From: Candidatus Woesearchaeota archaeon CG10_big_fil_rev_8_21_14_0_10_37_12
Lineage (GTDB): Archaea > Nanobdellota > Nanobdellia > Woesearchaeales > ARS49
Reading direction: 5' to 3'
NCBI GenBank assembly: GCA_002762795.1
Contig: PCYA01000017.1
Coordinates: 801 to 64,800 of the forward strand
Length of the DNA stretch: 64,000 nt
Below, piece by piece: positions 3,876 to 64,000 of the stretch (the first letter of the stretch is position 1; each line of letters starts with the position of its first letter). Made by a program: the position numbers and the translations under genes. Below the pieces are notes generated by a model. That model worked only from the letters and a program-made list of their open reading frames with translations, ran no database searches and was not told the DNA's origin.

Positions 3876-3897
3876 TTTGGTTACCTCCTTTTAGCGT

Positions 3898-3980
3898 GTC
3901 AAGAACCACCCGTCAATAGACGGGTGGCATGAAGCGATAGCTTCATCTTCGCTTGTAATGACCAGTGGTTCTTGAGCACA
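3898..3980 (-). repeat. MITE-like element copy A (terminal inverted repeats CAAGAACCAC / GTGGTTCTTG) followed by a hairpin cluster to 4057
   Basis: Inverted repeats gtcaagaaccacc (3898-3910) and agtggttcttgag (3964-3977); internal hairpins CCACCCGTC..GACGGGTGG and GAAGCGATAGCTTC; reverse complement aligns with copies at 44663-44763 and 51441-51533. Confidence 0.6.
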
Positions 3981-4023
3981 CTCGGAATTCCACTTGTCTT
4001 CGTTAAGCACATACACGCTTCGC

Positions 4024-4437
4024 TTAACCACCAGTGAACACACTGGTGGAATTCCGATGTTTAAACAACACTTTGTATTTATCCCAGTATGCGTAACCGA
4101 GATATGCGTTAAGCAGGGCAATAACAATACCAATTGGTAAAAATATTGGAGCTAACATTGCATTAAACACAAGGATGCCAACAGATACTGGTGCTATCAA
4201 AATTGCAGCAAGAGCAGGCAGGAAGTTTAGCATAAGCATTAAACCAGTAACAATCTCAGTCACTTTGATCATTTGAAATAATCCTGCACTCCATAAATTT
4301 TTTGTTATGCTTGCCATTGGTTCTGGAATTCCGTCTGCATTTGGTCCCTGAACAAAACCCATTATGCCACTTGCTAAAAAAACCAGGCCAAATAAAATTC
4401 TTATGGTGTTTAGTAAATATTTGTTTCTAAAATTCAT
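4024..4437 (-). CDS. DoxX-family membrane protein
   Basis: 137 aa, 4 TM helices, DoxX-like pattern; the last 11 codons are encoded by the hairpin repeat at 4024-4060. Confidence 0.5.
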   Translation of the reverse strand: MNFRNKYLLNTIRILFGLVFLASGIMGFVQGPNADGIPEPMASITKNLWSAGLFQMIKVTEIVTGLMLMLNFLPALAAILIAPVSVGILVFNAMLAPIFLPIGIVIALLNAYLGYAYWDKYKVLFKHRNSTSVFTGG

Positions 4438-7588: not shown

Positions 7589-7756
7589 AAATAAAAATCC
7601 CCGCCGCAAGCAGCGGGGTACAAGAAAATTCTTTGAATTTTCTGTACAGGAAAAGCATGCTTTTCCTTGTATTTTTAAAGTTATGATACTCCATCGATGG
7701 TAAGAAAAACAAGGACGAACCCAACCGCCCCAAGGAGCGGGGTATCATAACAAATG
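7589..7756 (+). repeat. structured ~165-bp repeat copy 1 (multi-hairpin, ends in ATGAA)
   Basis: Near-identical to the reverse complement of 45898-46042. Contains hairpin CCCCGC-CGCAAGCA-GCGGGG, hairpin GTACAAGAAAATTC-TTT-GAATTTTCTGTAC, and a 13-bp outer stem GTTATGATACTCC...GGGGTATCATAAC enclosing CCATCGATGG and CCGCCCC-AAGGA-GCGGGG. Confidence 0.55.
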
Positions 7757-7805
7757 AACAACGAAAAAAGAAAGAAGGATATATGGAGAAAAATTCTAAG
7801 CAACA

Positions 7806-25834: not shown

Positions 25835-26785
25835 TTAAGAACTTCTTCGGTCGCCGTTGAATCTGCCTGTTGTTTTACCGTATGCTTTTCCAGCAGCAGC
25901 CAACAAACGAGTGGTATATTTTTTTAAACGGCTTGTTTCTGGCTTAATATGCAACGGAATTGGTCTTACTGATTCTCCAACTTCGACGATGCGAACTGCA
26001 TTTCGCTCGTGTTTGGAGTCAAGTAAAGCTTCGTCAGCAGCAGTTCGCAATCCAGCAAACCGCTCAAGCATATACGGTTCATCGCCGTGTTCAATACGGA
26101 TGACATCTTCTGCAGTAGGTTTCCATAATGCAACTCCGACGCTGATTGTAACGGGAATTCTCGCATTTTCTCCATATCTTAAACTATCGTGCTTGAATTC
26201 GTAGCCAGCAACACGTTCAACCAATTGTTTTGCACGATGATATGCGACTTCTGCAGGAGTATTGTACTTAGCCCTTTTTAAATCAATTTGGTCCATCACT
26301 GCAGCAAACTCATCACCGCCAATGTGACCCAGCGCATCACCTTTTCTTGCCCACGCTTCCATGTGTCTACCAAGTCCAATTATTACGTAATCGCCTGCAT
26401 CATGGCCATGATGATCATTAATTTGTTTAAATTTATCTCCGTCGAGAAAAACAACTGCAAGAGGTCTCCTTGTTTTTCTGTATTCTCGCATCCCTCTGCT
26501 TAATGCATTTGGACCAGCAACTTCTTGAAAATAGGTTTTGTTAAACAAGCCAGTCATAGGATCAATAGCAACTCTGCGTTCTAAGGCATAAACTTTTGCT
26601 TCTAAAGCTTCTTTTTGATATTTGAGGAGGTCTCTTTCTGTTGTAACTCTTCGTAAATCGCGTTCAGCAGTGTTAACCCACCAGCTATTAAATTCAGCAA
26701 CATCAGCAAGAGCTATGCGTTCTGCTAAGTGTCTGTCTTCTTTGTTTTGATATGCTTCGTAGGTTTCTTCACCCATTTTCTTCAC
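25835..26785 (-). CDS. GGDEF-domain diguanylate cyclase with N-terminal coiled-coil
   Basis: DPMTGLFNK...RPLAVVFLDGDKFKQINDHHGHDAGDYVI...RKGDALGHIGGDEFAAV: intact GGDEF active site and RxxD I-site five residues upstream; no TM or sensor domain. Confidence 0.85.
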   Translation of the reverse strand: MKKMGEETYEAYQNKEDRHLAERIALADVAEFNSWWVNTAERDLRRVTTERDLLKYQKEALEAKVYALERRVAIDPMTGLFNKTYFQEVAGPNALSRGMREYRKTRRPLAVVFLDGDKFKQINDHHGHDAGDYVIIGLGRHMEAWARKGDALGHIGGDEFAAVMDQIDLKRAKYNTPAEVAYHRAKQLVERVAGYEFKHDSLRYGENARIPVTISVGVALWKPTAEDVIRIEHGDEPYMLERFAGLRTAADEALLDSKHERNAVRIVEVGESVRPIPLHIKPETSRLKKYTTRLLAAAGKAYGKTTGRFNGDRRSS

Positions 26786-29030: not shown

Positions 29031-32000
29031 AACAAACAAAATTATTGCTATTCATTTTTATTTTGCTAGCAACGCTTGTAAACGCGCAAGAAATAAACAT
29101 AACAAACGTGAATGTTAATCACACAAACCAAACAAGTGTTATCACATGGCAAACACAGCCAGCAGCAACAAGCCTTCTTCAATACGGCATTAATAATCTT
29201 GCACAAAACGCATCAGACAACAACGTAACAGTGCAACATAGAATAGAAATACCAACAACGCCAGGAGAAACATACCAGTACATCATTACAAGCTGTGCAA
29301 ACCAAAACTGCACAAGCATGCAACCAGCAACATTCACTGCAGGAAACTTCTTTGTCACAGCAGACATACCAACACATGTACGAACAGCAAATATTGATAT
29401 TACAGGAAGAACACAATCAGGAGCAACAATAAGATTAATACTTAACGGAAGAGACTTGCGAACATTAACCACGCAAACAAATACATTCTTGTTCCGAGAT
29501 ATTCAGCTCGACTCATCTAATAATACAATCATTATCCGCGCAACATCAGCAACAGGAGAAACAACACAAAAAAACTATCCTGTACGACTTGATAACTCTC
29601 CAGCAAGAGTATCAATAAACACAACTGCATTCACAACAGAAAAACCAGCACCATTGCGAATAGTAACTTCAGAGCCAGTACAATTGAACATCACAATACA
29701 ACAACTGGATGATGGAAATGAAACAAAAGAAGTGCAACATAATATCACTCTCGCAGGAACAATACAAATTCCAGTAGAATTATACGATGGAAGAAACAGG
29801 ATCAGCATTATTGCAACAGATTATGCAGGATTCACAACACACACAGAAACAGAAATTTATTATGATTTTGGACCGCCACAATTCTTAGAAACAAACCTTA
29901 ACCAATTAACGCCAAGCTACAGCAGATTAATACGCGTAAAAGGAACACTCAGCGAACCAGCAAGCGTGACAGTATTTCTCAACAATGAACCAGAAGAAAC
30001 AGTACAAACAGACAGCAACAATAAGTTCAACATACCAATAAACCTCAAACAATTCGCACAACTTGACAGAAGCCAAGCACCAAACAGAACAACATTGGAA
30101 ACAGGACTAGCATGGCGAAACAACATAAGATTAGAAGCAATAGATGCAGCAGGAAGAATAACAGCAATACAAGGAGATGTTGTTTACGCAAGCTGTTCAC
30201 AAGATGGACTCATAGATGTTGTTGTAACAGAGCCGCTGCCAGACATACTGAACACAAGATTATTAGTGGAAGGATTGCAGCAAGTCGGATTGTCGTTTAA
30301 CTACAGTTACAGAGGAGATCAGGAAGCAATCATCAGACCAGCAGACATAAGAATGCATAAACTCACACCAGGACAGGCATTCCAAAATGAATATGACAAC
30401 GCGCTCGCTACAGTTGCAAAACCAGGAGTAAAAGCAGCAAGCCAAACAGACGGCATAGGATATATCCAAGTAAACTTCAACTCCATAGAAGATCCATGGG
30501 CATTACCAGAAACAGGAAACGCGCCGCAAGCAACAGAACCTCCTTCAAATAATCCAACACTGTTTGACAAAGAAGATAGACTATCAGATCATAGAAAAGG
30601 AGACTGCTTGCTTCCGGGCTTTGGATGCATGCGAATTCTACTACAAATAGAAATACCATACCAAGAAAGCAGCGCAAGATATTACACAGGATCACAAAGA
30701 ACAACAACACAAACAGGGCAACAACCATTAGCACAAGATCTTGTTGACCTAAATGAACGCGTGCACAGAACATGCTTACCAATAGAAGTAGCAATAGACA
30801 GAAGAATACCTCCAGAAAAACTCGGAAGCAGTTTCCTGAACCACACATCAAGAGTTCTTGGCGAAATTGTAGAGAACATAGACAAAGTACTCAAACCAGT
30901 GGAAAATGTTGGACGATTCTTGTTCTACTCCTGTCTTGCAAGCACAGGATTAATGTACTTGCCAAGCCTAAACGAAAGATGGACGTGCAAATACAGCAAC
31001 GCTGTAAACTTATTTAACAGAGACCTAGACGAATCAGCAACATTCAATGAGGGAGTTGCTGCAATAGGAAAATGTGAAGATTTCTACACAGGAGAAGCAC
31101 TTGAAAACTGCAAATCGTGCAGCGAAGCAAAAACAACATTCAACAATTACAAATACTATTACCAGCAAATCTGCGACAGAGTAATGTGCGGAGCAGCACC
31201 AAGCTTACAAACTTACTTGCGAGTAAAAGGACGAACAACACTCGAAAAAATAGAAGGATCAGGATATGAAGCAGGAAGCGACTGTGCAATGTGGATGAAA
31301 GAAAAAGGCAAAATCGGCACAGGAAAAAGAGGAGCAGTTATTTTTTCGTATCAGGAAATAGAAGGAATATACAAAGACTGGTTGGAACACCAAAGTGATG
31401 ATGCAGATGACACAGGATTTTCAGGGGAAGTGAACTGTGCAGGGTTGCACCCAGCTGACGCAAGCTGTTGCGGATATGAATACATGCAGGAATGGAGCAG
31501 CGCTTGCGGAGTAAGCATAGGTGGTGGAGGTCTTGACTTATTCGATGAAATTAAAGAAAGCACATGCTTGAGTGCGCAAAACGCAAACAAAAATGAAATA
31601 CCGGGAGCAGGAGACACAACGATACAATGCAGCAGATTAACAAATGCTCTCAGTGGATTCTGTGATGCAAATGGAGGACCGCCACTAGAACCAATACGAG
31701 TTATGCACTTTGAAGGCGGAGACTCAGGAGTAACAGGCAAAGTACGCCAATTAGGATTAGCAACTAACAAGGAAAAATTCATGTACGTCCTAATAAAAGA
31801 AAATACAGGAGGGCAAACACAAGAAAAGCACTCAATAATGCTTGGATTTGTAGCTGAGAAAGTAAAATACGCACAAACACCGCAATCAGCAACATTTGCA
31901 GAAGAAGATATATTCAGCATTAATACGCAAACAGAAGCAAGAGTTATGCCTGGAGGGTATGAGCTACAACAACAATTCTTCAGAGAAGAACAAACAGCAG

Positions 32001-35000
32001 CTTATTATCAAGGACAGCTTGATGATAACTTTTACACACAATTCGGCAACTATCTTTGTAACCAAGCAGGATATTCTGGACTGCCTTGCCAAGATGGAGA
32101 CTTTACACGAGATGATGCCAAAGACGTTTACGCAAGAGTCATGCAATACATTGGAGATCCAGAACAAGAATACATTGTCAACCCAAGCTCTGGAGTAATA
32201 AATGCAGCACGATGCTTGTGCTTCCCAACACTCATTAGCTTCCTAAAAACTTGGAGGAATATACTGCAAGCAGTGCAAAACTGCGTTAACAGCATAATAT
32301 TAACAGGAGACGGAGATGCAGGAATCTGCCAAGAAGGAGTAACAATACCAATGTGCGATTTGTTATACGATGCAATTGCGTGTTTCACACAACGATTCGG
32401 AGCAGGAGGAGGACGAATAGGACTAGGAGGAGGAGATCCAATAGGAGCTCTCACCAGCGCAGGGGCACAAGTATCACGAACAGTAGAAAGCAGATACGGT
32501 ACGACAAACATGTATCAGGCAACATTCGGAGACAGAAAACTTGTGCATAGCATTTGTTTGTTTGCATTCACAGGAACATGGAACCTTGATCCTTCTGCAT
32601 TATTTGACCAAGCACTCGAAGACGTTCCAACAGAAAGTTATACATTGTTGTATCCTTGTCAGAGAAGGTACGTAAGCTATGATCCTACAACAACACCGGG
32701 AGGTTTAGTAACATGGGTGTACAATTTCGGTGCAGGAATAGCAGCAGGAGCAAACTTAGACGTAGACTTTAAACTCAAATGCAGTGCAGACAGAAGTTGT
32801 CTTCCATCAGAAGGTTTTGAAGGCGGCAAGTGTGATTGTGAAGAATCAGGACAAGAAAAATACTTGCCAATCAGACCACAAGGAACACCAACAAGAGTAG
32901 CAAAAGGAGAAATTTTCAATCAACCAGTGTACTTCACGTTAAAGGGTAATCCAAGAGATGGTTCAACAAGATATGATACGTTAATTATGACTCACAGATG
33001 GAGAGATCAAGGGAAAATAGCAGAAAAACAAACAGAATGCAAAATAGGCCAGGCAGGAGGACCGTTAAGCGTGCCTCCGCATTGTAAATTTGACGCGGCA
33101 ACATTAAGCTTTAGGTGCATGCTTGGAGAAGACGAAGGAGCAATCAGTTTATTGGGCTCAACAGTAGATGCACAGCACAACATACCAAACCCGGCATTTG
33201 CATTAGGAGAAGAACTCAACATTACGCTCGATGTAAGGCAAGCATACCCAAGACAAGACGCAATGTTCAACAAATATTTGGAGTACGCAGTCATGAATTC
33301 AGCAGGGCAAACAGTTGCAACAAATAAAGACGAAGCACTGCATCCCTTGACAACAAACGGCGATTACAAAATAAGAACAACAAACAGAGGAATATTCAGA
33401 ACACAATTAACTGTTACAGAAGACTGGTTCGGAACGCAGCAACAAACAGGCAGAAATTACCAGACAAGCACATGGAACAAAAATGAGCCTAGTGTGTTGT
33501 CGCCAAATGATGAAGGATTAATCGCAGATGTTTTGTTAACAGATGCTACAGGAAATACAAAAACAGAACAATCAGCGTTTGTTATCGAATTTTCCAATGA
33601 AAATGACCAAACAACATGGAAACTATTTGATGGAGGATCAAGAAGAAAATCAGCAGCAGGAATACAAAAAGGAAACCAATTAACAGGAGGAGTGTATAAC
33701 CCAACAACCACAATCATCTTCTATCAGGGAACAACAGCACAATCACAAATTGTCAGAGATCCAAATGCACCAGCAGGAGTACGAGTTGTACAAAGTGCAA
33801 ACGCAAATATCAGAATAACATTCAACAATATGCCTGTGCTTGCGCCAGGAGAACGAAAACAAATCTTAGTAGAATGGCAAAAACAACCAGAACTCGGAGC
33901 ATGCACTGACGAAACAAAAAGACAACAACCACAAAGATTCACCATAACATTCTCAGCATTTGATGCTGACGAAAACGGAAACCCAAGCAACCAAGTAAGC
34001 GTAGATCCAAACACAGGAACACCAGCACAATTGCAAGTACCATTTTTTGCAGTATGTTCAGAACCTTCAGCAATTGCACATTTGGAAACAGCAAACAATG
34101 AAACAATGATCAAACAATTCATGAGAGACATCCACGACGAATTTGGAAAAGCAAAAATAGAACAACAAGAATATCTTACAAGAATTGATGCATTTTTAGC
34201 ATCATCATACCCATTAGATACTCAGCAAGGAAAAGGAGATGTAGTATCAAGATTAGAGGCATTATTAACATATGAATCATTACATTACAACAAAATACAA
34301 GGATTTGTTAATAGACTAACAAGCTTGCCTACAGAGAACAGAATAGCAGGAGTTGATGAATTTGAAACACTTCTGAACAGATATAATGTTGAATTAGGAG
34401 TTGCAATTAGAGTAATCAGAGGAATGAAAGATGACATCAGACAAAGCAGTTTAAGACAAGAAATAGGACCAGCATTACTAGAGATTAAAACAAAACTTAC
34501 AGAATTAATGCAGACTAAAGACCAAGCAATACAGGCAACACAAGAAATAATCTTATTCAGACCAACAACTACAACACAACAATTAAGCCAAAGAGACCCA
34601 GCAACAACACCTTTGTTAGCAAATGATAGGAAAATATTGGAAGAAATAAAAAGATTGATTGAACGTCATCAACAAATAACTCCCATTTCCGCAAAAAATA
34701 GTCAAATAATAGAAATAAATAGGCTTTTCAACTATACTTTTACAGGTGTCACTGTTGAGTATGTTTATAACTTTATTAAAGCAATTAATATAACACAAAC
34801 CACACATTCTCAAACATATAGTGGGCACATAGGCAGACTTTCTTCAGAAGAACGAACAACCAGCATAGTTCAACTTGAAATAGAACTCATGCAATTCTTA
34901 ACACATACAAGATCAGTGCTGCCAAACCTTCAATTAACTGCGTATAAACAACAATTACAACAAATAAATTCAAGTTTCACACAAATCACACAAGCAGAAG

Positions 35001-35830
35001 ACGCAGTGCTAGCATACATTACTCAAAGATTAACAGCGCCAGAAGCGCAAGTAACAGCACAACCAACAATAGACGCGTCAACAAAAGAAGGACAATTGCA
35101 AGCACTCAAAACAGCAATAGAAACAGCAAGACGTGATCGAGAACCTTATTTGCTTACTTTCCAAGATTATGTAACTAATCCAGCAACAATGCCAAATGAT
35201 CATGTACAATTTAGAAATAGTTACGCGAGAGCGCAACAAGTAGAAATACAAAACATGCAAGCATTAGAAACAATACAAATAAATCAATTACCAGACATAA
35301 TTAAACAAGACGTAGAATTGCTTAAGTTCAATATGGGAACAATTACAACAGGAAGTATTGGCAGGTTTATACAGAACATACAAAGTGCTGATTTGCAACA
35401 ACTTAAGAGTCAAGTTCCTGAAATGCACCAGAAATATCAGCTAATAACTGGCCAAGAAGATAGCATTCTCAGACAAATAGACCAAGAACTCAGTTCTTCT
35501 GGATCGGGTGGAGCAGCAGGACCACCACAAGTTCAAACACCTCCGGCACAACCACAACAAACAACACTAGAAGATCAACAAAAACTTGGTGCACTCAAAA
35601 TCATCATTGAAGCAAACCAACAAATAAGAACTAATCACAAACAAAGAATAACAACATATCTCCCGGCACTTGCACCTGGAAATAAAGAAACAGTCAGAAA
35701 CCTAATACGAGCAATACAAGAAACAGAAAGCAGATACGCGAGAAATGTTGAATTAGCTCATATTGGGTTGTCCAGTCAAGAGTTAAGAGCAATACCACAA
35801 CTTGCAGCATTAAAATTCACAACAGACTAA
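29027..35830 (+). CDS. giant secreted surface protein (2267 aa): sequon-rich N-terminus, Cys-rich middle, Gln-rich coiled-coil C-terminal third
   Basis: Signal peptide MKQTKLLLFIFILLATLVNAQE, >60 NxS/T sequons, dense Cys clusters between aa 600-1300, Q-rich heptad-like region aa 1550-2260. Confidence 0.7.
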   Translation: MKQTKLLLFIFILLATLVNAQEINITNVNVNHTNQTSVITWQTQPAATSLLQYGINNLAQNASDNNVTVQHRIEIPTTPGETYQYIITSCANQNCTSMQPATFTAGNFFVTADIPTHVRTANIDITGRTQSGATIRLILNGRDLRTLTTQTNTFLFRDIQLDSSNNTIIIRATSATGETTQKNYPVRLDNSPARVSINTTAFTTEKPAPLRIVTSEPVQLNITIQQLDDGNETKEVQHNITLAGTIQIPVELYDGRNRISIIATDYAGFTTHTETEIYYDFGPPQFLETNLNQLTPSYSRLIRVKGTLSEPASVTVFLNNEPEETVQTDSNNKFNIPINLKQFAQLDRSQAPNRTTLETGLAWRNNIRLEAIDAAGRITAIQGDVVYASCSQDGLIDVVVTEPLPDILNTRLLVEGLQQVGLSFNYSYRGDQEAIIRPADIRMHKLTPGQAFQNEYDNALATVAKPGVKAASQTDGIGYIQVNFNSIEDPWALPETGNAPQATEPPSNNPTLFDKEDRLSDHRKGDCLLPGFGCMRILLQIEIPYQESSARYYTGSQRTTTQTGQQPLAQDLVDLNERVHRTCLPIEVAIDRRIPPEKLGSSFLNHTSRVLGEIVENIDKVLKPVENVGRFLFYSCLASTGLMYLPSLNERWTCKYSNAVNLFNRDLDESATFNEGVAAIGKCEDFYTGEALENCKSCSEAKTTFNNYKYYYQQICDRVMCGAAPSLQTYLRVKGRTTLEKIEGSGYEAGSDCAMWMKEKGKIGTGKRGAVIFSYQEIEGIYKDWLEHQSDDADDTGFSGEVNCAGLHPADASCCGYEYMQEWSSACGVSIGGGGLDLFDEIKESTCLSAQNANKNEIPGAGDTTIQCSRLTNALSGFCDANGGPPLEPIRVMHFEGGDSGVTGKVRQLGLATNKEKFMYVLIKENTGGQTQEKHSIMLGFVAEKVKYAQTPQSATFAEEDIFSINTQTEARVMPGGYELQQQFFREEQTAAYYQGQLDDNFYTQFGNYLCNQAGYSGLPCQDGDFTRDDAKDVYARVMQYIGDPEQEYIVNPSSGVINAARCLCFPTLISFLKTWRNILQAVQNCVNSIILTGDGDAGICQEGVTIPMCDLLYDAIACFTQRFGAGGGRIGLGGGDPIGALTSAGAQVSRTVESRYGTTNMYQATFGDRKLVHSICLFAFTGTWNLDPSALFDQALEDVPTESYTLLYPCQRRYVSYDPTTTPGGLVTWVYNFGAGIAAGANLDVDFKLKCSADRSCLPSEGFEGGKCDCEESGQEKYLPIRPQGTPTRVAKGEIFNQPVYFTLKGNPRDGSTRYDTLIMTHRWRDQGKIAEKQTECKIGQAGGPLSVPPHCKFDAATLSFRCMLGEDEGAISLLGSTVDAQHNIPNPAFALGEELNITLDVRQAYPRQDAMFNKYLEYAVMNSAGQTVATNKDEALHPLTTNGDYKIRTTNRGIFRTQLTVTEDWFGTQQQTGRNYQTSTWNKNEPSVLSPNDEGLIADVLLTDATGNTKTEQSAFVIEFSNENDQTTWKLFDGGSRRKSAAGIQKGNQLTGGVYNPTTTIIFYQGTTAQSQIVRDPNAPAGVRVVQSANANIRITFNNMPVLAPGERKQILVEWQKQPELGACTDETKRQQPQRFTITFSAFDADENGNPSNQVSVDPNTGTPAQLQVPFFAVCSEPSAIAHLETANNETMIKQFMRDIHDEFGKAKIEQQEYLTRIDAFLASSYPLDTQQGKGDVVSRLEALLTYESLHYNKIQGFVNRLTSLPTENRIAGVDEFETLLNRYNVELGVAIRVIRGMKDDIRQSSLRQEIGPALLEIKTKLTELMQTKDQAIQATQEIILFRPTTTTQQLSQRDPATTPLLANDRKILEEIKRLIERHQQITPISAKNSQIIEINRLFNYTFTGVTVEYVYNFIKAINITQTTHSQTYSGHIGRLSSEERTTSIVQLEIELMQFLTHTRSVLPNLQLTAYKQQLQQINSSFTQITQAEDAVLAYITQRLTAPEAQVTAQPTIDASTKEGQLQALKTAIETARRDREPYLLTFQDYVTNPATMPNDHVQFRNSYARAQQVEIQNMQALETIQINQLPDIIKQDVELLKFNMGTITTGSIGRFIQNIQSADLQQLKSQVPEMHQKYQLITGQEDSILRQIDQELSSSGSGGAAGPPQVQTPPAQPQQTTLEDQQKLGALKIIIEANQQIRTNHKQRITTYLPALAPGNKETVRNLIRAIQETESRYARNVELAHIGLSSQELRAIPQLAALKFTTD

Positions 35831-36527: not shown

Positions 36528-36576
36528 ATGATAACCAAAACCTCGCCAAACGCGTGGAATTTGTTTGTTAAACACA
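36528..36576 (+). repeat. direct repeat 1 (49 bp): duplicated 5' end of the membrane-protein gene flanking the TA cassette
   Basis: atgataaccaaaacctcgccaaacgcgtggaatttgtttgttaaacaca; encodes MITKTSPNAWNLFVKHK then terminates; nearly identical to 37639-37690. Confidence 0.6.
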
Positions 36577-36610
36577 AAAAAAGAAACCTTTAAATACTAT
36601 TGGTTCATAT

Positions 36611-37168
36611 TTGGCACATATGGTTCAAAAAAGAAACAATGTTGAGTTGGAAATTATAGATCTATTGTTTAAAAAAGAGAATCATGTCAGAGGAATATCT
36701 AAAAAACTAAATGAATCTCATTCTACAATATCGAGAAAATTAAACTATCTTAAAGATGAAAACGCGATTGATTATGTGCGGGAAGGAAAAAATAAGGTGT
36801 TTTTTCTGAAAAAAAACATCGTTGCACAAAGTTACATTCTAACCTCAGAAATACACAAACTAATAAAATTATTGAGAATATGCCCAGAATTAAGCGTTAT
36901 TTTTGAAGAAATGCTAAATAAAACAGATGAAAAATTAATCATTCTTTTCGGATCCTACGCAAAAGGGCTTGCTAAAAAAGACAGCGATATAGATGTTTAT
37001 ATTGAGACAAAAAACAAAACCGTTAAAAAAATTGTTGAGGATATAAATTCAAAAATCAGTGTTAAAATTGGTACATTCGATATTGACTCTCCGCTCGTTA
37101 AGGAAATAATAAAAGATCACATAATTATCAGAGGAGTTGAAAAATTTTATGAAAAACAATTTTCTTGA
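36611..37168 (+). CDS. winged-HTH fused to a minimal nucleotidyltransferase (MNT antitoxin-like)
   Basis: N-terminal wHTH (HVRGISKKLNESHSTISRKLNYL), then LFGSYAKGLAKKDSDIDVYIE = GSx9-10DxD Pol-beta NTase motif. Confidence 0.7.
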   Translation: MAHMVQKRNNVELEIIDLLFKKENHVRGISKKLNESHSTISRKLNYLKDENAIDYVREGKNKVFFLKKNIVAQSYILTSEIHKLIKLLRICPELSVIFEEMLNKTDEKLIILFGSYAKGLAKKDSDIDVYIETKNKTVKKIVEDINSKISVKIGTFDIDSPLVKEIIKDHIIIRGVEKFYEKQFS

Positions 37169-37628
37169 AAAACTAAAAAAAGAAGAAAAACTAGAACTGA
37201 TCGACCCTTCAGAGAACATCCATGATTCTTACTTGGAAAAATCCAATAACTGTATGAAAGCAGCAAAATTATTGTTGCAAAACAAATTATATGAGAACTC
37301 TATCGGGATGTCTTATTATGCGATGTATGACTTGCTTGTAGCATTATTATTCAGAGTAGGAATTAAATGCGAGAATCACTCAGCAGCAATTCTATTGCTC
37401 AAATCACTATTTGAAAATGATGAATTGTTTAAACTTATTTCGAATGCAAAAAAAGAAAGAATTGATAAACAATATTATATAACGACTGAAAAAGATACTG
37501 TGACTGAAGAAATAGCAAAAGAATTATTAACTCATGCGGAATACTTTGTTTTAAATCTGAAATCAATTATTGCCAGATTAAAAAACGAGGATGTTCCTAA
37601 AATCAGAGAAAAATTCAAAACATTATAA
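37137..37628 (+). CDS. HEPN-domain protein (toxin-like partner of the MNT)
   Basis: All-helical 163 aa; overlaps the MNT gene by 32 nt; HEPN-MNT gene order; Rx4-6H not clearly assignable. Confidence 0.55.
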   Translation: MKNFMKNNFLEKLKKEEKLELIDPSENIHDSYLEKSNNCMKAAKLLLQNKLYENSIGMSYYAMYDLLVALLFRVGIKCENHSAAILLLKSLFENDELFKLISNAKKERIDKQYYITTEKDTVTEEIAKELLTHAEYFVLNLKSIIARLKNEDVPKIREKFKTL

Positions 37629-37638
37629 CACTGGAAAA

Positions 37639-37690
37639 ATGATCCTTACAAAAACCTTACCAAACGCGTGGAATTTGTTTGTTAAACACA
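37639..37690 (+). repeat. direct repeat 2 (52 bp) matching 36528-36576
   Basis: atgatccttacaaaaaccttaccaaacgcgtggaatttgtttgttaaacaca. Confidence 0.6.
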
Positions 37691-38448
37691 AGCAATACCT
37701 TATATTATTTGTATTGTTAGACTTTGTCTTTTTGTTCTTTACAGCACAAGCCCATTTAACTTATTTTATTCCGACAGCAGATGCGGCAAACAGAGCAGGA
37801 GAAATTATCACGCAAGAACTGCAAACACTGCAAATGACAGATGCATACCAACTGGACGCTATTCTAATGCAAAATTCGCAGTTTAAACAAGCATATCATG
37901 ACTTATTGCAAGGCATAATTTACTTTTTTATCACCATGTTTATCATCTGGATAGTTATCAGGTCAGCAATCTGGCACATCAGCTACAAAATAATTCATAA
38001 AAAAACAAACTGGAAAACAAACGTGCTCAAATTTGCACTGTTTAGCCTTTTTTGGTTTGTTGTTGTTGCAATCGTGTTCGTTCTTTACAGTATATCAACA
38101 GGAAGCACAGCAACATTGTTACCAATAGTTGGAAATCCGTTAATTAGCATATTGATGATTGCTCTGTTTGTTCTAATTTATTATTTCAGTCAGATAAGTT
38201 TTGCTCTTGTGCCGGTACAACAAAGTTTTAATAAGACCTTTGCTTACGGAGTAAAATATGCCAAGAAATTTGTTCCAGTGGCACTTATAAATGCAATAAT
38301 TGTGTTCCTTGCACTCAGTCTGCCACTTAACTGGCTGCAAACATACCCAATAATATCACTTGCAATAATCATAATCATCAGCATACCAGCACTCGCATTT
38401 GCACGAGTGCATATAATCGGAGCAACAGAATGGGTAAAAAAATATTAA
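37639..38448 (+). CDS. polytopic membrane protein
   Basis: Start set at ATG 37639 (MILTKTLPNAWNLF), since this N-terminus is what is duplicated at 36528; ORF track extends to 37591; 6 TM helices. Confidence 0.5.
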   Translation: MILTKTLPNAWNLFVKHKQYLILFVLLDFVFLFFTAQAHLTYFIPTADAANRAGEIITQELQTLQMTDAYQLDAILMQNSQFKQAYHDLLQGIIYFFITMFIIWIVIRSAIWHISYKIIHKKTNWKTNVLKFALFSLFWFVVVAIVFVLYSISTGSTATLLPIVGNPLISILMIALFVLIYYFSQISFALVPVQQSFNKTFAYGVKYAKKFVPVALINAIIVFLALSLPLNWLQTYPIISLAIIIIISIPALAFARVHIIGATEWVKKY

Positions 38449-42376: not shown

Positions 42377-44383
42377 ATGGCAGCAAAAAAACAAATAGAG
42401 AATTTTGAAAAATCATCAGAAAATAGTCAAAATTCTCTAAGCAGTGCTTTGAATAATAAAAAAAGTAACCAGCCAAAGCACTCAGCAAAGAAAACAGAAA
42501 CATACGAAAAACAGGAAAAACCAGAACAATCATATGGTCAAAAACAAACAACAAAAACAGAACAAAAAGAAGACTTTATTCCACTAAGTGTACCAAAAGA
42601 AGTTGTGGAGCAACTCAAACCAATCAAAGACAAACTTGTCAAGTTTCAAAAAACAATTACTGAAAAATTTGACAAATACATCATGGGTATTGCGTTATTA
42701 CCACCACCATTACCACCTCTGAAAAATTTACCTCCAGATATACTGGCACAAGAACAAAAAAGATACGATCAGGAAAAAGACAAATACCACACCTTAGTTC
42801 TCATAGATGATACAGAACCAACACGAATGAGCAAACTTGAGTTAAAAGATAAATTAACTGCAATCATGGATAAATCAGCAATAGAAATTGACCAAAAAAT
42901 ATACCCTCAGCCACTATTGCTCACAGAACTCTGGCAAAACTGTTATGATGGGAAATATGACTTGCTCAAACTTATAGGGATGAGTGCTCCTATTTATGAC
43001 ACTGGAATGCTTGGAGCAGTACGCATTGCAGAAATGCACAAAAATATGGTTCTCAAAAAATTTGAGAAGTACATTGTAACATACGTTCTTGCAGGATCAT
43101 TAGTACAAGGACGAGCAACAAAAGAATCAGACATAGATGTCTTTATTGTTATTGATGATACTGACGTTAAGAAAATGTCACGAACAGAACTTCGTGACAA
43201 ATTGCGAGCGATTATTCTAGGAATGGGTGCAGAAGCAGGTGAATTAACAGGCATCAGAAACAAAATCAACATTCAACCGTACATCCTAACAGACTTCTGG
43301 GATATGATACGAGAAAGTAATCCTGTTATATTTACTTTCCTGAGAGATGGAGTTCCTTTCCACGACAGAGGAATATTCATGCCATGGAAACAACTGCTCA
43401 AAATGGGCAAGATAAAACCATCAACAGAAGCAATAGACATCTTCATGAGCTCAGGAGAACAAACGCTAAACAAAGTCAAACTGCGATTGCGAGACATTGG
43501 AGTAGAGGATTTTTTCTGGGGAATTCACACACCAACACAAGCAGCATTGATGTTATATGGTGTTGCACCACCCGCACCTAAAGAAACGTGTGGAGTACTT
43601 CGAGACTTATTTGTCAAAAAAGAAAAACTGCTTGAAGAAGATTATGTAAAAATCCTTGAAAATGTTATTCAGGTCAGAAAAGACATAGAACACGGAACAA
43701 AAAAAGAAATCACAGGCAAAGAAATAGACCAATTGCTTGCAGACTCTGAAAAATACATGAAAAGACTCAAAAAATTATTTACACAAATCGAAAAAATTAA
43801 GGAAGAAGAAAGCATGTTGCACATATATGACACCATGCAAACAATGCTACGCGATGTACTGAAAGTAGAGGGTGTTGATAGGGCAGCAGAAGGGGAATTA
43901 GCGCATGTTTTCGAGGAAGAATTAATTAGTACTGGAAAAGTTCCTGCTAAGTATTTGAGAACTCTGCATGACTTGCTAAAAGCAAAAGCAGACAGTGACA
44001 AAGGAAAACTTGGCAAAACAGAAATTGATCAGGTGCGCAAACAAGCAAATGAGCTAATCAGATATCTGGTTGATTACACACAACGCAAAAGAGTACGCGC
44101 ATTTGAACGAAGCAAAATCAAGGTAAAACACGGCAATAAATACGGCGAAATAGTGTTGCTTGGTGATTCAGCGTTCATAATTACTGACATGGATGCAAAA
44201 GAACGCGTTGTAGAAGAAGCACCAGTGAAAGAAGACGGAAGTTTTGGAACAGCAAAAAAAATAAAACCAGAAGAGTTTGAAGAAGCAATGACAAAACTCT
44301 CACCAAGAAAAGTAACATTGACTTCGAATTTGTTTGAGAGCATAACAAAAATATTCGGTAAAGATTGCGAAGTGCTTTATTGA
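42377..44383 (+). CDS. large Lys/Glu-rich protein with tandem Pol-beta-type nucleotidyltransferase domains (first degenerate) and helical C-terminal region
   Basis: YHTLVLIDDTEPTRMSKLELKDKLTAI (degenerate copy) and YVLAGSLVQGRATKESDIDVFIVIDDTDVKKMSRTELRDKLRAI (intact GS..DxD); 300-aa helical C-terminus. Confidence 0.55.
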   Translation: MAAKKQIENFEKSSENSQNSLSSALNNKKSNQPKHSAKKTETYEKQEKPEQSYGQKQTTKTEQKEDFIPLSVPKEVVEQLKPIKDKLVKFQKTITEKFDKYIMGIALLPPPLPPLKNLPPDILAQEQKRYDQEKDKYHTLVLIDDTEPTRMSKLELKDKLTAIMDKSAIEIDQKIYPQPLLLTELWQNCYDGKYDLLKLIGMSAPIYDTGMLGAVRIAEMHKNMVLKKFEKYIVTYVLAGSLVQGRATKESDIDVFIVIDDTDVKKMSRTELRDKLRAIILGMGAEAGELTGIRNKINIQPYILTDFWDMIRESNPVIFTFLRDGVPFHDRGIFMPWKQLLKMGKIKPSTEAIDIFMSSGEQTLNKVKLRLRDIGVEDFFWGIHTPTQAALMLYGVAPPAPKETCGVLRDLFVKKEKLLEEDYVKILENVIQVRKDIEHGTKKEITGKEIDQLLADSEKYMKRLKKLFTQIEKIKEEESMLHIYDTMQTMLRDVLKVEGVDRAAEGELAHVFEEELISTGKVPAKYLRTLHDLLKAKADSDKGKLGKTEIDQVRKQANELIRYLVDYTQRKRVRAFERSKIKVKHGNKYGEIVLLGDSAFIITDMDAKERVVEEAPVKEDGSFGTAKKIKPEEFEEAMTKLSPRKVTLTSNLFESITKIFGKDCEVLY

Positions 44384-44535
44384 TTTTTTATCTCAAATGT
44401 TGGGTCTAATACAAAGAAAATTCTCAGAGTTTTCTGTGCGCGAAAAATGTATTTTTCGCTGTAGAAAAATGAACGATACCAATAAAATTCTTAGAATTTT
44501 ATGGCGCCAAAAAATGCTTTGAATTTTTTGAGCGA

Positions 44536-44580
44536 AATACCCTGACCTTCAGGTCGGGGAATGGTGCGTTTTTCTTTATT
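44536..44580. repeat. GC-hairpin plus T-tract element copy 1 (CCTGACCTTCAGGTCGGGGAATGGTGCGTTTTTCTTTAT)
   Basis: ~90% identical to 49991-50035; sits between convergent gene ends. Confidence 0.5.
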
Positions 44581-44662
44581 TTATACGTCAGAAATATACC
44601 ATCAGTCTATTTGACTGATGGACAACGTCCCTATTACTATAGTAATCTGGTATATTTCTGAG

Positions 44663-44763
44663 CATGCTCAAGAACCACTGGACTATATTTTCTTATAACT
44701 TTCTGAACAGTCATGCCACTGGTGTTTAGCGACGAAGGAGCGATCACCAGTGGTTCTTGACAT
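44663..44763 (+). repeat. MITE-like element copy B
   Basis: Inverted repeats ctcaagaaccactgg (44668-44681) and ccagtggttcttgac (44747-44761); internal sequence ~80% identical to copy C; preceded by nested hairpins 44589-44660. Confidence 0.6.
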
Positions 44764-44790: not shown

Positions 44791-45900
44791 TTAACTCTTC
44801 TTCGCAAACAAATCAACCATTTTTGCAAATACTTTTGAAATTGGTGTTATTATTGATGTTTTGTATTCGCTTAACACTAATTTTTCAATTGCATGTTTAA
44901 TAAGTGCAGGCAATCGTCCAGTAATTACTTTTTTATTTGGCAAAGTCAATATTGCATTATGATCTCCTAAACTTATTACAAGCGGAGCACTTTTTGGAAT
45001 ATACTTCTTTAATGTCTCTTTTCTCTCCAAACAAAGAATATTCCTGACAATCGTGTGCGCATGACGCTCTGCATTCTGAGCAGTCTTTTCCTCTTTAACA
45101 TTATTTATGTCACCGCCAACAAAAATGTTCTTTGTACCTTCTAACTGCAAATAATTATTTACCTTTAACGCACTTCGTTCGTCGCAAAACTTTTCTTTGT
45201 TTTTCATAAACCAAGGGTTGTATCTGATTCCTGCACACCACAACGCAGTATCTGCAACAATTTTTTTTCCTTTATCAGTTAAATACGTTTTTTTTCCTTT
45301 ATGTTTTTTAACTCGTTCACCAAATATGATTTTAACGTTATGGGCTTTCAAAAAATTTTCTGCATAAGTTGATGCTTTTACAGGATTTCTTTCAAGCAAA
45401 CGTTCTTTTGGATGAACAAGTGTGACATTTACTTTTGGAGCTTTTGTAATAAGTTCGCCAGTAATTTCTGTACCAACAAGACCTCCACCAACAATTAAAA
45501 GATTCTTGCTTTTACAGATATATTTTCCAATTCTCGTAGCCTCGCTGCCTGATTTTAGCGTGTACACATTTGTTTTATTTTCTAAAAAAACAGGATAATC
45601 AATTCCTGTGCAAACTATCAAATAATCAAAGTTTAGTGTTTCTTTGGCTGTTTTGACGTGTTTTTCTGTAACTTCCAGTAGTTTGTCCGTTACTATTCTT
45701 GTACGTTTTAGAAAATTTTTGAAAGGAACAATTATTTTTTTGTGATATTTTGAATCAAAAATAATTCTGTGAATGCTCGGCGTGTATTCAAAATAATTTT
45801 TCTTATCAATTAAAATAACTTGAAAATCAGGCAAAACATTAAGTTTCTTTGCAGCTAATGCTCCGCAAAAACCTCCACCAAGGATAATTATTTTTTTCAT
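44791..45900 (-). CDS. FAD-dependent pyridine nucleotide-disulfide oxidoreductase (NDH-2/SQR-like)
   Basis: Two Rossmann motifs IILGGGFCGALAA and LLIVGGGLVGTEI, 369 aa. Confidence 0.7.
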   Translation of the reverse strand: MKKIIILGGGFCGALAAKKLNVLPDFQVILIDKKNYFEYTPSIHRIIFDSKYHKKIIVPFKNFLKRTRIVTDKLLEVTEKHVKTAKETLNFDYLIVCTGIDYPVFLENKTNVYTLKSGSEATRIGKYICKSKNLLIVGGGLVGTEITGELITKAPKVNVTLVHPKERLLERNPVKASTYAENFLKAHNVKIIFGERVKKHKGKKTYLTDKGKKIVADTALWCAGIRYNPWFMKNKEKFCDERSALKVNNYLQLEGTKNIFVGGDINNVKEEKTAQNAERHAHTIVRNILCLERKETLKKYIPKSAPLVISLGDHNAILTLPNKKVITGRLPALIKHAIEKLVLSEYKTSIITPISKVFAKMVDLFAKKS

Positions 45901-46042
45901 TTGTTATGATGCCCCACTCCTTGGGACGGTTGGGTTCGTCCTTGTTTTTCTTACCATCGATGGGGTATCATAACTTTAAACCCGAGAAAATTCAAAGAAT
46001 TTTCTTGTACCCCACTGCTTGCGGTGGTTGGGATTTTTATTT
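45898..46042 (-). repeat. structured repeat copy 2 (reverse orientation), abuts the start codon of the oxidoreductase gene
   Basis: Reverse complement aligns with 7589-7756 but lacks a ~30-bp internal segment; its terminal ATGAA supplies the start codon of the 44791-45900 gene. Confidence 0.55.
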
Positions 46043-49608: not shown

Positions 49609-49923
49609 TTAAGAATACTTCCACTTAACACCAATCTGAACAATACTAATCACCAATGCAACAATATTGCACAATACAACTGGAATTGCAGCGATAAGAA
49701 AGCCATAAATTGCCCACAGCAAACAATTAAATAAATATAACGTAAGCATAAGCCAAGACAAATCTTGCACACTCTTTGTTCTTATTGACTTAATCACTTG
49801 AGGCAACATTAAGGCAGTGCCAATTATTGCAGCAAGATATCCTATTACGTTTATTATTGCAAAGTTCGCAAGAACTTTGTAGATGGGTTTAATACAAGGA
49901 AAAGCAGAGCTTTTCCTGTACAC
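49609..49923 (-). CDS. SemiSWEET/PQ-loop family small transporter
   Basis: 104 aa, 3 TM helices, LMLPQVIKSIRTKSVQDLS PQ-loop motif; GTG start. Confidence 0.55.
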   Translation of the reverse strand: MYRKSSAFPCIKPIYKVLANFAIINVIGYLAAIIGTALMLPQVIKSIRTKSVQDLSWLMLTLYLFNCLLWAIYGFLIAAIPVVLCNIVALVISIVQIGVKWKYS

Positions 49924-49975
49924 AAAAATCTTTGATTTTTGTTGTACCCCGCCCTTTAGGGCGAACTTTGCAAGT

Positions 49976-50035
49976 AGAAAAACGCACGATAAAATACCCC
50001 GACCTTCAGGTCGGGGAATAGTGCGTTTTTCTTTA
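49976..50035. repeat. GC-hairpin plus T-tract element copy 2 (AAAAACGCAC...CCCCGACCTTCAGGTCGGGG...GTGCGTTTTT), likely bidirectional terminator between ftsZ and the SemiSWEET gene
   Basis: Nested perfect stems CCCCGACC/GGTCGGGG and AAAAACGCAC/GTGCGTTTTT flanked by T-runs on both strands; a second hairpin CCCCGCCCTTTAGGGCG at 49947-49963. Confidence 0.5.
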
Positions 50036-50110
50036 TAATTGCATTCATTGTTTACCTGAAAAAAGGATATTCACAAAATTAAAAATAGTTAATAAAAAAG
50101 AAAATAAAAA

Positions 50111-51175
50111 TTACAGCATTTCAATGCCAAGATCTCTGTTTAATGCTTGTCTTTGAGGACTTCCTTGTTTTCCGCTTTGTTTGCCAAGAAGCCAGGGTGA
50201 GTTAACTCCTGTTATAATGGTCATCACCATAAGTTTTCCTTTCATGTCATCAGAGACTCGTGCTCCCCAGATTACATTTGCATCTTCGTCCATTGTTTCA
50301 GTAACAAGTTGACCAACTTGGCTGATTTCTTCTAATGTTAAGTCAGGACCGCCTGAAACATGAATTAATGCTCCAGTTGCACCGTGGTAATTGATATCTA
50401 ACAAGGGGTTTGCTAATGCGCCTTTAACTGCTTCTTCGACTTTGTTGTTAGTGTCAGAACTTCCAACACCAATAGCTGCAACACCACCGTTTGTCATAAT
50501 TGCTTTAACATCAGCATAGTCTAAGTTGACTAATGATGGTACTGCGATTGTTTCAACAATGCCTTTGATCATTGTGCTTACTAATTCGTTTGCAACTGCA
50601 AACGCTTGCTGTACTGGCAAATTGCCTGCTATTTGCACTAAACGGTTATTGTCAATTACTACGACAGTGTCGCAAACTTGTCTTAATTGTTGCAAGCCAA
50701 ATTCTGCTTTGTCAATTCTTGCGCGTTCAATGTTGAATGGCATTGTTACTGTGCCAATAACAATTGAACCCATTTCTTTTGCAACACTTGCAACAACAGG
50801 TGCTGCACCTGTGCCAGTACCGCCGCCCATTCCTGCACAGACGAAAATCATGTCAGATCCTCTTAATGATTCTTTGATTTGCATCAAAGATTCCTGAGCA
50901 GCTTCTGCACCTTTTTGTGGAAAACCGCCGCAGCCAAGACCGCGAGTTAAATCACGACCTATCATGAACTTTTTATCACCTTCAGAAATATCAACGTGCT
51001 GTTTATCTGTATTGCACACAATTACTTCTGCACCTTTCACGCCTTTTTTGTACAGCCAGGAAACCATATTGTTTCCAGCGCCGCCAACGCCTACTACTTT
51101 AATGTTTGCCTGACCGAAGTCAGCTTCTTGTGTTGTTGTTTCTTGTGCTAAAGCACTTTTTACTAGGAATTCCAT
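50111..51175 (-). CDS. ftsZ: cell division GTPase FtsZ
   Basis: GVGGAGNN, tubulin signature AGMGGGTGTGAAPVVA, T7 loop NVDFAD-like; SD aggagg upstream. Confidence 0.95.
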   Translation of the reverse strand: MEFLVKSALAQETTTQEADFGQANIKVVGVGGAGNNMVSWLYKKGVKGAEVIVCNTDKQHVDISEGDKKFMIGRDLTRGLGCGGFPQKGAEAAQESLMQIKESLRGSDMIFVCAGMGGGTGTGAAPVVASVAKEMGSIVIGTVTMPFNIERARIDKAEFGLQQLRQVCDTVVVIDNNRLVQIAGNLPVQQAFAVANELVSTMIKGIVETIAVPSLVNLDYADVKAIMTNGGVAAIGVGSSDTNNKVEEAVKGALANPLLDINYHGATGALIHVSGGPDLTLEEISQVGQLVTETMDEDANVIWGARVSDDMKGKLMVMTIITGVNSPWLLGKQSGKQGSPQRQALNRDLGIEML

Positions 51176-51440
51176 CTTTGCAGCCTCCTCTTTTATTTAC
51201 GGGATCACTCCCTGTAAGCATAAAAGGCTCTCCATGTTTGTGGGTTTGGGGGGTGGATATGGGGAAAGAAACAGTGGAGAGCCCATTTTGAGCATGAAAT
51301 GAGACGCTGATTCAGTGTCTCGGAATATATTACCTCTCTTTCCCTTTTTTCATATGTCGGAATGTCACTCGTCGGCATTCCGAGCATGATCAAGCCAAGA
51401 AAATGCAAAGCATTTTCTGGCCCAGAAAATCCTCTGGATT

Positions 51441-51533
51441 TTCTTGGGAACCGCTGGTCATTTTTTCTTATGATTTTCTGACCAGACACTGGTGTTGAGC
51501 ACCGCATTGCGATCACCAGTGGTTCTTGACATG
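51441..51533 (+). repeat. MITE-like element copy C
   Basis: Inverted repeats cttgggaaccgctggtc and gatcaccagtggttcttgacat; right half ...cactggtgttgagcacc..gcgatcaccagtggttcttgacat near-identical to copy B; hairpins 51330-51440 precede it. Confidence 0.6.
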
Positions 51534-51682
51534 TGACAACCAGTTGCCTAATGTACTAATTGTCACAATTGTGTATACTGGTAGCTAAGCTAGTATTTAA
51601 AGGTTGCGATTCAGCACAAAATTAATATACGAGTACACTATAAGGCTATACTGGGGTGTGTATAGACTAAATCAGGTGTGCA

Positions 51683-63736: not shown

Positions 63737-63757
63737 TTAATTCAAAGTTGCCTTTAC

Positions 63758-63852
63758 GGACCGTAGGGGCTTCGAACCCCCGACCACTCGGTATCTGTCT
63801 TGAGTATATCAAGCTAAGAGCCGAGTGCTCTACCAGACTGAGCTAACGGTCC
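63758..63852 (-). tRNA. tRNA-Lys(CUU) with a 22-nt intron at the canonical 37/38 position
   Basis: Reverse complement GGACCGT-TA-GCTC-AGTCTGGTA-GAGC-A-CTCGG-CUCUUA-[GCTTGATATACTCAAGACAGAT]-A-CCGAG-TGGTC-GGGGG-TTCGAAG-CCCCT-ACGGTCC gives a perfect 7-bp acceptor, D, anticodon and T stems, U33, anticodon CUU; no encoded CCA. Confidence 0.8.
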
Positions 63853-64000
63853 AATATAAAGAAAAACAAGCGTTTCTTTTAAATATCTTGCGCAGTTATT
63901 TCCTTAACTTTTTAATTTGCAATCTAAAAAATTTCTTTACTTCTTTCACAACAGAATCTGTACTTGCAAAGAAGTCAAACAAACTTCCTATGAAAAGTGT

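Follow-up and report, generated by a model that had tools for sequence, protein, structure and literature searches.

A family of short palindromic repeats occurs in three copies (A, B and C) within a 64,000-nt stretch of contig PCYA01000017.1 (GCA_002762795.1) of Candidatus Woesearchaeota archaeon CG10_big_fil_rev_8_21_14_0_10_37_12, referred to below as the window, and recurs in other genomes. We consider it probable that these repeats are non-autonomous mobile elements of DPANN archaea, mainly of Woesearchaeota, that are moved in trans by a hairpin-recognising enzyme. The family is closest to the haloarchaeal SMR-A elements and to REPINs, the inverted doublets of repetitive extragenic palindromic (REP) sequences, rather than to a strict MITE (miniature inverted-repeat transposable element). 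An earlier sequence-only reading had described the three copies as MITE-like elements of ~90-100 bp with terminal inverted repeats (TIRs), two of them, B and C, almost identical in part. All three are present where it placed them, and copies B and C do share an identical 24-mer, GCGATCACCAGTGGTTCTTGACAT. An exact 14-mer of the family, CCAGTGGTTCTTGA, occurs four times in the 64 kb against a calculated chance expectation of ~0.0005, and with up to 3 mismatches it was matched 14 times, a number that none of 100 shuffled sequences reached.

The borders and the grammar of the element were derived from an alignment of 72 copies from other genomes together with their flanks, followed by within-genome alignments, which yielded sharp borders and a two-hairpin architecture. 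The unit of ~80-100 bp is one half of a composite of ~170-190 bp that consists of two hairpins, H1 and H2. Thus, the inverted repeats of the sequence-only reading stand, but its ~90 bp is not the full element, and the 'additional hairpins' that it reported beside the copies, while present, are not separate features but the H1 halves of the composites (copies A and C, and also B; Table 1). On the element strand, a left motif TTNAWATG is followed by H1, a GCATGC linker, H2 (TCAAGAACCAC…GTGGTTCTTGA) and a final CA. H2 is a foldback of 65-100 bp with a foot of 11-16 bp, TCAAGAACCAC(TGGTC)…(GACCA)GTGGTTCTTGA, around a variable middle, and a REP-like hairpin, CCACNNGTC-loop-GACNNGTGG, abuts its 3' foot. 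H1 is recognisable at 75 of 91 copies by its foot TCRGAA…TTCYGA; its sequence differs among subfamilies while its self-complementarity is constant. In many subfamilies H1 resembles an inverted copy of the H2 unit, and the same type of CCACNNGTC-loop-GACNNGTGG hairpin stands beside its 5' foot, mirroring that beside the 3' foot of H2, indicating that the composite is a head-to-head pair of like units. Across the family, composites measure 140-190 bp and the linker is a palindrome of the GCATGC type. Covariation of the left ATG/ACA with the linker CAT/TGT indicates that the H1 stem reaches into the left motif and the linker. The composite ends read TGTCRGAA…TTCTTGACA (the termini are also given as TGTCRGAA…GGTTCTTGACA), with 5'-TG…CA-3' as the outermost bases. 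Conservation at the two borders is asymmetric, with 0.8-1.3 bits at 6 of the 8 positions of the left TTNAWATG and only CA conserved on the right; TTNAW may be target or element sequence, both of which are compatible with the data. At one locus in another genome (L093, 3681-3859), two identical H2 units stand in tandem 114 nt apart with an H1-type hairpin before each, so that arrays exist.

The window copies follow this plan to different degrees. The arms TCAAGAACCAC(TGG)/(CCA)GTGGTTCTTGA are perfect in copies A and B. In copy A, whose element strand is the minus strand of the window, TCAAGAACCAC at 3899-3909 pairs with CCAGTGGTTCTTGA at 3962-3975, and the arms of copy B lie at 44668-44681 and 44747-44760. 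In copy C, the right arm is perfect (51516-51529) and the left is degenerate (GGGAACCGCTGG, 51446-51457). Further hairpins lie inside: CATGAAGC-TATC-GCTTCATG and CCACCCGTC-TATT-GACGGGTGG in H2 of copy A, the REP-like CCATCAGTC-TATTT-GACTGATGG (44599-44622) in H1 of copy B, and the nested pair CCAAGAAAATGC-AAA-GCATTTTCTGG and CCCAGAAAATCC-TCT-GGATTTTCTTGGG in copy C. Every H2 unit forms a long hairpin, that of copy A at -45.3 kcal/mol as RNA (z = -7.5), and composites A, B and C fold as single-stranded DNA (ssDNA) beyond shuffled sequence (z = -6.8, -7.0 and -6.2, respectively).

Conservation between copies is found at the level of structure. RNAalifold picked out a subterminal hairpin of H2, in which 94.5% of the cells in an alignment of 74 sequences pair, compared with at most 55% in slid controls. 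Double-sided changes in this hairpin number 95 versus 34±5 in shuffled alignments, none of 500 of which reached 95. The subterminal hairpin is therefore maintained by compensatory changes. As for the strand that folds, H2 alone showed no preference (p = 0.17), while H1 and H2 together favoured the element strand by 1.9 kcal/mol (p = 0.002).

To place the family among genomes, the pattern CAAGAACCAC-N45-75-GTGGTTCTTG was scanned through one genome per species (185,579 species, 596 Gb), and at least 108 loci matched. Among the matches listed, ~93 loci share flanks and interior with the family, so that copies restricted to this one contig, which would have spoken against a mobile repeat, are not what is seen. 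Another ~15 of those listed are unrelated bacterial matches, in agreement with the ~17 calculated to arise by chance in 596 Gb. The metagenome-assembled genomes (MAGs) that host the ~93 family loci are labelled Woesearchaeota, Nanoarchaeota, Aenigmarchaeota or simply 'archaeon', and 26 of the loci bear the unconfirmed label 'uncultured Methanosarcinales'; several MAGs carry at least 3-6 copies among the matches listed. The host loci range from 29 to 54% GC and the foot is unchanged across this range. Identity between copies of different species reaches 90%: the H2 half of copy A matches one copy from a different MAG (L062) with 90% identity over 89 nt and two more (L025 and L060) with 88-89%. 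No match was found in 2.9 million viral contigs, and virus-borne spread was rejected on this ground.

Copies are found in either orientation and in every kind of intergenic context. When flanks were classed by gene orientation, the classes held 16, 13, 13 and 13 copies (16 divergent, 13 convergent and 26 tandem), which are chance proportions. All-against-all clustering of 772 open reading frames (ORFs) near copies revealed no recurrent neighbour; AsnC/Lrp regulators and P-type ATPases were shared by a few loci only, and a linked gene as partner of the element was rejected. The site of copy C, in the spacer between the divergent genes g131 and ftsZ, could be followed across relatives. A metagenome search with FtsZ gave 80 orthologous loci (74-90% identity), 16 of which retain the divergent g131-ftsZ order (g131 67-76% identical, FtsZ 76-89% identical) with spacers of 268-566 nt versus 507 nt in the window. 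None of these 16 spacers contains copy C; in the window, its 189-nt composite lies between two conserved anchors, a GTGACAATT…GGTTGTCA hairpin and GGGAAAGAGAGGT. Copy C is thus a lineage-specific gain. Similarly, a search with an H2 profile found three copies in the 64-kb window versus one full copy (L139) in 800 kb of relatives; no syntenic relative with an empty site for the latter was found. The family behaves as dispersed selfish DNA.

How such a repeat might move is suggested by its ends. HUH/Y1 systems (IS200/IS605, and REP sequences with their RAYT transposases) leave no target-site duplication (TSD), have a conserved oligonucleotide on the 5' side only and are conserved at the level of structure; IS200/IS605 derivatives are normally without TIRs. 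The 9-10 nt from the 3' hairpin foot to the element end also resemble the right end of IS608. IS200/IS605 is the commonest insertion sequence (IS) family in archaea (PMC13343696). In the present family, a TSD test on 57 copies with both borders gave a mean longest shared flank word of 4.35 versus 4.14±0.14 for permuted flanks, and no fixed offset and length stood out among 507 combinations. An enzyme whose gene lies at another place in the genome would copy or move the repeat in trans. This enzyme would probably recognise hairpin structure in ssDNA, in the manner of the HUH/Y1 enzymes that serve IS200/IS605 and REP elements, and a DDE cut-and-paste transposase would be a less likely mover.

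Several observations weigh against mobilisation of this kind. At the ftsZ site, the closest relatives carry 42-46 nt of unrelated sequence in the place of copy C, so that the element replaces ~42-46 nt and is not a simple insertion, and no clean pair of filled and empty sites was found. The two strands fold about equally, and the weak asymmetry cannot separate recognition of ssDNA from recognition of double-stranded DNA. The excess of wobble pairs in the hairpin is in part an artefact because the search pattern fixed the 3' arm; outside the four fixed pairs it amounts to 26 versus 15. The strong TIRs of the element are a misfit to IS200/IS605, and identity of up to 90% between species could reflect a host function. 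One copy (L107, 4267-4386), the sole TSD-like case among the 57, is flanked by a 10-bp direct repeat, TTATAAACCT, with a calculated chance probability of ~1e-4 per copy, as for a DDE insertion. The mobilising enzyme, finally, was not met with: Pfam scans of the 50 window ORFs revealed no transposase; a search for long elements with matching ends 260-5000 bp apart gave nothing convincing in ~1.7 Mb of related DNA; and tblastn of the same ~1.7 Mb with approximate queries for IS608 TnpA and E. coli YafM, a weak test for Y1/RAYT genes, gave nothing below E = 2.6. On the result of the search for matching ends, an autonomous copy within the ~1.7 Mb was rejected. As a separate observation, the L107 element has a TATA-like box on one side and the beginning of the downstream gene on the other.

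A classical MITE, of which the Sulfolobus SM elements are prokaryotic examples, would be a deletion derivative or mimic of a DDE-type IS, whose transposase binds the 11-16 bp TIRs, cuts and pastes the element and duplicates the target. With such elements (e.g. Correia/NEMIS), the family shares TIRs, a length below 200 bp (here 65-190 bp), a non-coding and mostly intergenic nature, multiple AT-flanked copies, the ability to extend or alter adjacent ORFs and leaders, and presence/absence polymorphism at orthologous ftsZ sites, though with the unclean junctions just mentioned. The composite ends 5'-TG…CA-3' and the direct repeat at L107 would also suit a MITE. However, apart from L107, the TSDs that the sequence-only reading had proposed to look for are missing across the 57 bordered copies, and so is, within ~1.7 Mb of related DNA, the cognate IS with matching ends. 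That reading was right that the window holds no transposase, the only recombinase among its ORFs being XerA-like, and none was found near the ~93 loci either. Moreover, border conservation is asymmetric, and the internal hairpin retains its structure rather than its sequence, conservation that extends beyond the ends. What remains of the MITE-like description is a short, non-coding, multi-copy inverted repeat with no transposase nearby; a strict MITE appears quite unlikely.

It is very unlikely, in our estimate, that the repeat is instead a functional structured RNA or an RNA-level cis element under selection, either a small RNA gene driven by a promoter of its own, the TTNAWA box, or a hairpin that works in both directions to stabilise transcripts or end them. 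The stems covary, the family is conserved in genomes of widely different GC content, the left motif resembles an archaeal TATA box, H1 and H2 together fold better on the element strand, GAAA or GATA occurs in some loops on the opposite strand, and copy C would be transcribed in the ftsZ leader. Yet orientation relative to genes is random, with divergent, convergent and tandem spacers used equally, and the repeat is missing at each of the 16 orthologous ftsZ sites and almost missing from the 800 kb of close relatives. The TATA-like box has a base other than T at position 3, and no conserved transcription factor B recognition element adjoins it; because the box abuts the hairpin, a start site ~25 nt downstream would truncate H1. 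H2 alone lacks a strand preference, and no Rfam family matches. Fragments of tRNA or other non-coding RNA genes, which the sequence-only reading had named as the alternative to its own proposal, were not recovered: the only Rfam match at gathering level in the window is a tRNA (63757-63852), and permissive scans of the three copy loci gave sub-threshold noise. By inspection, no C/D box, H/ACA, hammerhead or hairpin-ribozyme motif and no canonical bulge-helix-bulge site was seen in the element, and a known RNA identity was rejected. Measured from the left ATG to the right TGA, the copies are spread over all three frames (14, 18 and 12 copies by length modulo 3) and stops interrupt most of them, indicating that the element is non-coding; two small ORFs, one reading MSRTTGDR… on the reverse strand and the other MSE… from the ATG of the left border, were rejected on the same grounds. 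Origin-recognition boxes were rejected by copy number and context.

The structure also invites comparison with folded recombination sites of a tyrosine recombinase, such as integron attC or the attP of the Xer-using CTX phage, in which units are exchanged site-specifically. Each junction consists of inverted arms around a 4-6 bp CATG/GCATGC core, structure is kept while sequence varies, as in attC, there is no TSD, and a gene for a XerA-type, integron-integrase-like tyrosine recombinase lies at 688-1494 (+). This protein, however, scores as an ordinary archaeal XerA (NCBIfam XerA 213.5 bits versus an equivalog cut-off of 220; the integron-integrase model also scores well), and its gene is 2.4 kb from copy A and unlinked to copies elsewhere. 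The right-hand core is conserved as CA only. Cassette arrays were not seen, the copies being solitary and in both orientations, and by inspection the foot CAAGAAC/GTTCTTG misfits the attC R''/R' consensus RYYYAAC/GTTRRRY. We regard site-specific exchange as highly improbable.

Among described repeats, the SMR-A elements of Haloquadratum walsbyi (HqIRS42, HqIRS43 and HqIRS55; Dyall-Smith et al. 2011), whose mobilisation was termed 'enigmatic' (PMC3119063), offer the closest parallel to a mobile hairpin repeat of the present kind. They too are units of ~110 bp with prominent TIRs and no target duplication in an archaeal host, they lie inside or beside other palindromic elements, and no transposon with related ends is known for them (PMC3119063), which for the Woesearchaeota family holds within the ~1.7 Mb of related DNA. 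The two are unrelated in sequence and in host phylum; the Woesearchaeota unit usually adjoins another hairpin that has the same type of foot, and its family spans many species whereas SMR-A families were described within one. SMR-A elements favour the palindromes of other mobile elements, including those of the IS605 type, as insertion sites; here nesting is seen (small hairpins in the arm of copy C, dimers and tandems). The haloarchaeal PATEs, which are IS200/IS605 derivatives (PMC3119063), resemble the family in their near-end palindromes, lack of target duplication and conserved short oligonucleotide, of 4-6 nt in PATEs, directly 5' of the element only, but are without the TIRs (PMC3119063) that are strong here; neither an IS605-type parent nor strong strand asymmetry was found for the Woesearchaeota family.

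With REPs, REPINs and bacterial interspersed mosaic elements, the family has in common short hairpins kept by compensatory change, inverted doublets that form a larger hairpin, mirrored CCAC…GTGG hairpins at the two outer feet of the composite, mosaic arrays with fixed linkers, an extragenic location without TSD, and persistence in related species. To our knowledge, REP-RAYT systems have been described only in bacteria, and we know of no REPIN-RAYT-like or hairpin-recognition system of such a kind in Archaea. The Woesearchaeota units are longer and branched, and the weak tblastn test of ~1.7 Mb brought up no RAYT/Y1 gene. According to PMC3733652, one end of a REP palindrome bears a conserved tag, GTAG or CGTC; our alignments show conservation of neither, and the hairpins in them start with CCAC and end with GTGG. 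It is a rather unlikely but specific proposal that the family is the archaeal counterpart of REPIN-RAYT, or that it uses a new hairpin-recognition route; in either case, a single-copy host enzyme would recognise ssDNA by its covarying CCAC…GTGG hairpin and its TTCTTGACA tail.

Table 1. Positions of the three composites and their parts in the window
Feature	Positions	Strand	Remarks
Copy A, full composite	3896..4066	-	171 nt: left motif, H1, linker GTGTGC, H2, CAC
Copy A, hairpin H2 (unit of the sequence-only reading)	3899..3975	-	foot TCAAGAACCAC/GTGGTTCTTGA
Copy A, hairpin H1	3982..4057	-	foot TCGGAATTCCAC/GTGGAATTCCGA; inner hairpin CCACCAGTG-TGTT-CACTGGTGG
Copy A, left border motif	4058..4066	-	element strand GTTTAAACA
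Copy B, full composite	44579..44763	+	185 nt
Copy B, hairpin H1	44588..44661	+	foot TCAGAAATATACCA/TGGTATATTTCTGA, perfect 14 bp
Copy B, hairpin H2 (unit of the sequence-only reading)	44668..44760	+	preceded by linker GCATGC 44662-44667
Copy C, full composite	51345..51533	+	189 nt
Copy C, hairpin H1	51357..51383	+	TCGGAATG…CATTCCGA; followed by linker GCATGA 51384-51389
Copy C, hairpin H2	51390..51529	+	outer foot TCAAG…CTTGA; left arm degenerate
Two small nested hairpins in left arm of copy C H2	51395..51448 (51395-51420, 51421-51448)	+	mutually inverted copies, 88% complementary

The gene content around the copies is archaeal (FttA, a proteasome subunit, exosome subunits, SBDS, a NOG1-type GTPase, XerA and an intron-containing tRNA), and the three window copies are passive insertions. 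Copy A had been placed inside the 3' end of a DoxX-family gene whose last 11 codons come from an adjacent hairpin. The gene end is indeed supplied by that hairpin, since H1 covers the last codons and the stop (ORF 4024-4437, minus strand; stop codon 4024-4026), and H1 with the left motif encodes the last 13 rather than 11 residues (FKHRNSTSVFTGG); the TIR unit itself lies outside the gene, downstream of the stop. The start codon of a DUF1428 gene follows 20 nt downstream of the end of copy A. Copy B lies in a 400-nt spacer, full of other hairpin repeats, between convergent genes for a nucleotidyltransferase-domain protein (42377-44383, +) and a pyridine-nucleotide disulphide oxidoreductase (44791-45900, -). 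Copy C is located upstream of ftsZ (50111-51175, -), as had been noted, in the 507-nt g131-ftsZ spacer. Because it stands between a promoter-like box (51593-51605) and a conserved ftsZ leader hairpin (51226-51284), copy C is predicted to lie inside the 5' leader, and the ftsZ mRNA would carry it in reverse orientation. The leader hairpin is an element in its own right on the minus strand, with a stem GGGCTCTCC/GGAGAGCC around a C-rich loop CCACCCCCCAAACCCAC and no Rfam match; it is kept in 16 related metagenome loci with compensatory stem changes (e.g. GGGCTCTCT…AGAGAGCCC) and may serve ftsZ as a cis-regulatory RNA.

Other repeats and genes in the window were recorded alongside. A second hairpin-rich family of ~160 nt is represented by inverted copies at 7601-7761 and 45893-46027 (94-95% identical) and partial copies at 49909-49963 and 44414-44463. 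It has GC-rich tetraloop-like hairpins and small CAAGAAAAT/CAGAAAAT-type hairpins with a 1-nt A bulge, and was not found in the other loci examined (~1.7 Mb). A third repeat of 45 nt (96% identical) with the hairpin CCCNGACC-TTCA-GGTCGGGG occurs at 44535-44579 and 49992-50036, and also at 17825-17872 of another locus (L182); one of these copies lies immediately next to the left end of composite B. Direct 44-nt repeats (93% identical; 36534-36577 and 37648-37691) bracket a nucleotidyltransferase-HEPN gene pair (36611-37628), which resembles a toxin-antitoxin module and may therefore be a small mobile cassette. The window, otherwise archaeal, further encodes three bacterial-type signalling proteins with sigma-54-interaction AAA+, HTH_8 (Fis-type) and GGDEF domains (genes at 11792-12949 (+), 12926-13582 (-) and 25835-26785 (-)), a very large ORF of 2267 aa (29027-35830, +) and a tRNA gene with an intron (63756-63853, -), which scores 53.9 bits as a tRNA in Rfam and whose anticodon was left unassigned by ARAGORN.

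The genomes of DPANN archaea are small and densely packed with genes, and their mobile DNA has been described only poorly. We found no description of the present family, and the sole mention of DPANN MITEs that we met with is a census figure of 105 MITEs per Mb for one Woesearchaeal genome (PMC11602168). Small non-autonomous palindromic repeats are already known as a kind in bacteria and haloarchaea; the family itself provides a concrete, searchable signature for repeat annotation in Woesearchaeota MAGs. It also accounts for fragmentation of short-read assemblies: an exact-protein FtsZ search returned the same strain only, in three 1.4-kb contigs from three other samples (L109, L110 and L111, with identical FtsZ) that stop at or within the intergenic repeats to either side of ftsZ. 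The elements reshape gene ends and leaders; in the window, this concerns the C-terminus of a DoxX protein and the leader of ftsZ, an essential division gene. If an archaeal REPIN-RAYT counterpart or a new hairpin-recognition route were indeed at work, the elements would have been maintained throughout Woesearchaeota for very long, possibly with a role in structuring transcripts or the chromosome. Taken together, the strong inverted repeats, covarying subterminal hairpins and lack of target duplication suggest a way of mobilisation that has yet to be characterised in archaea.

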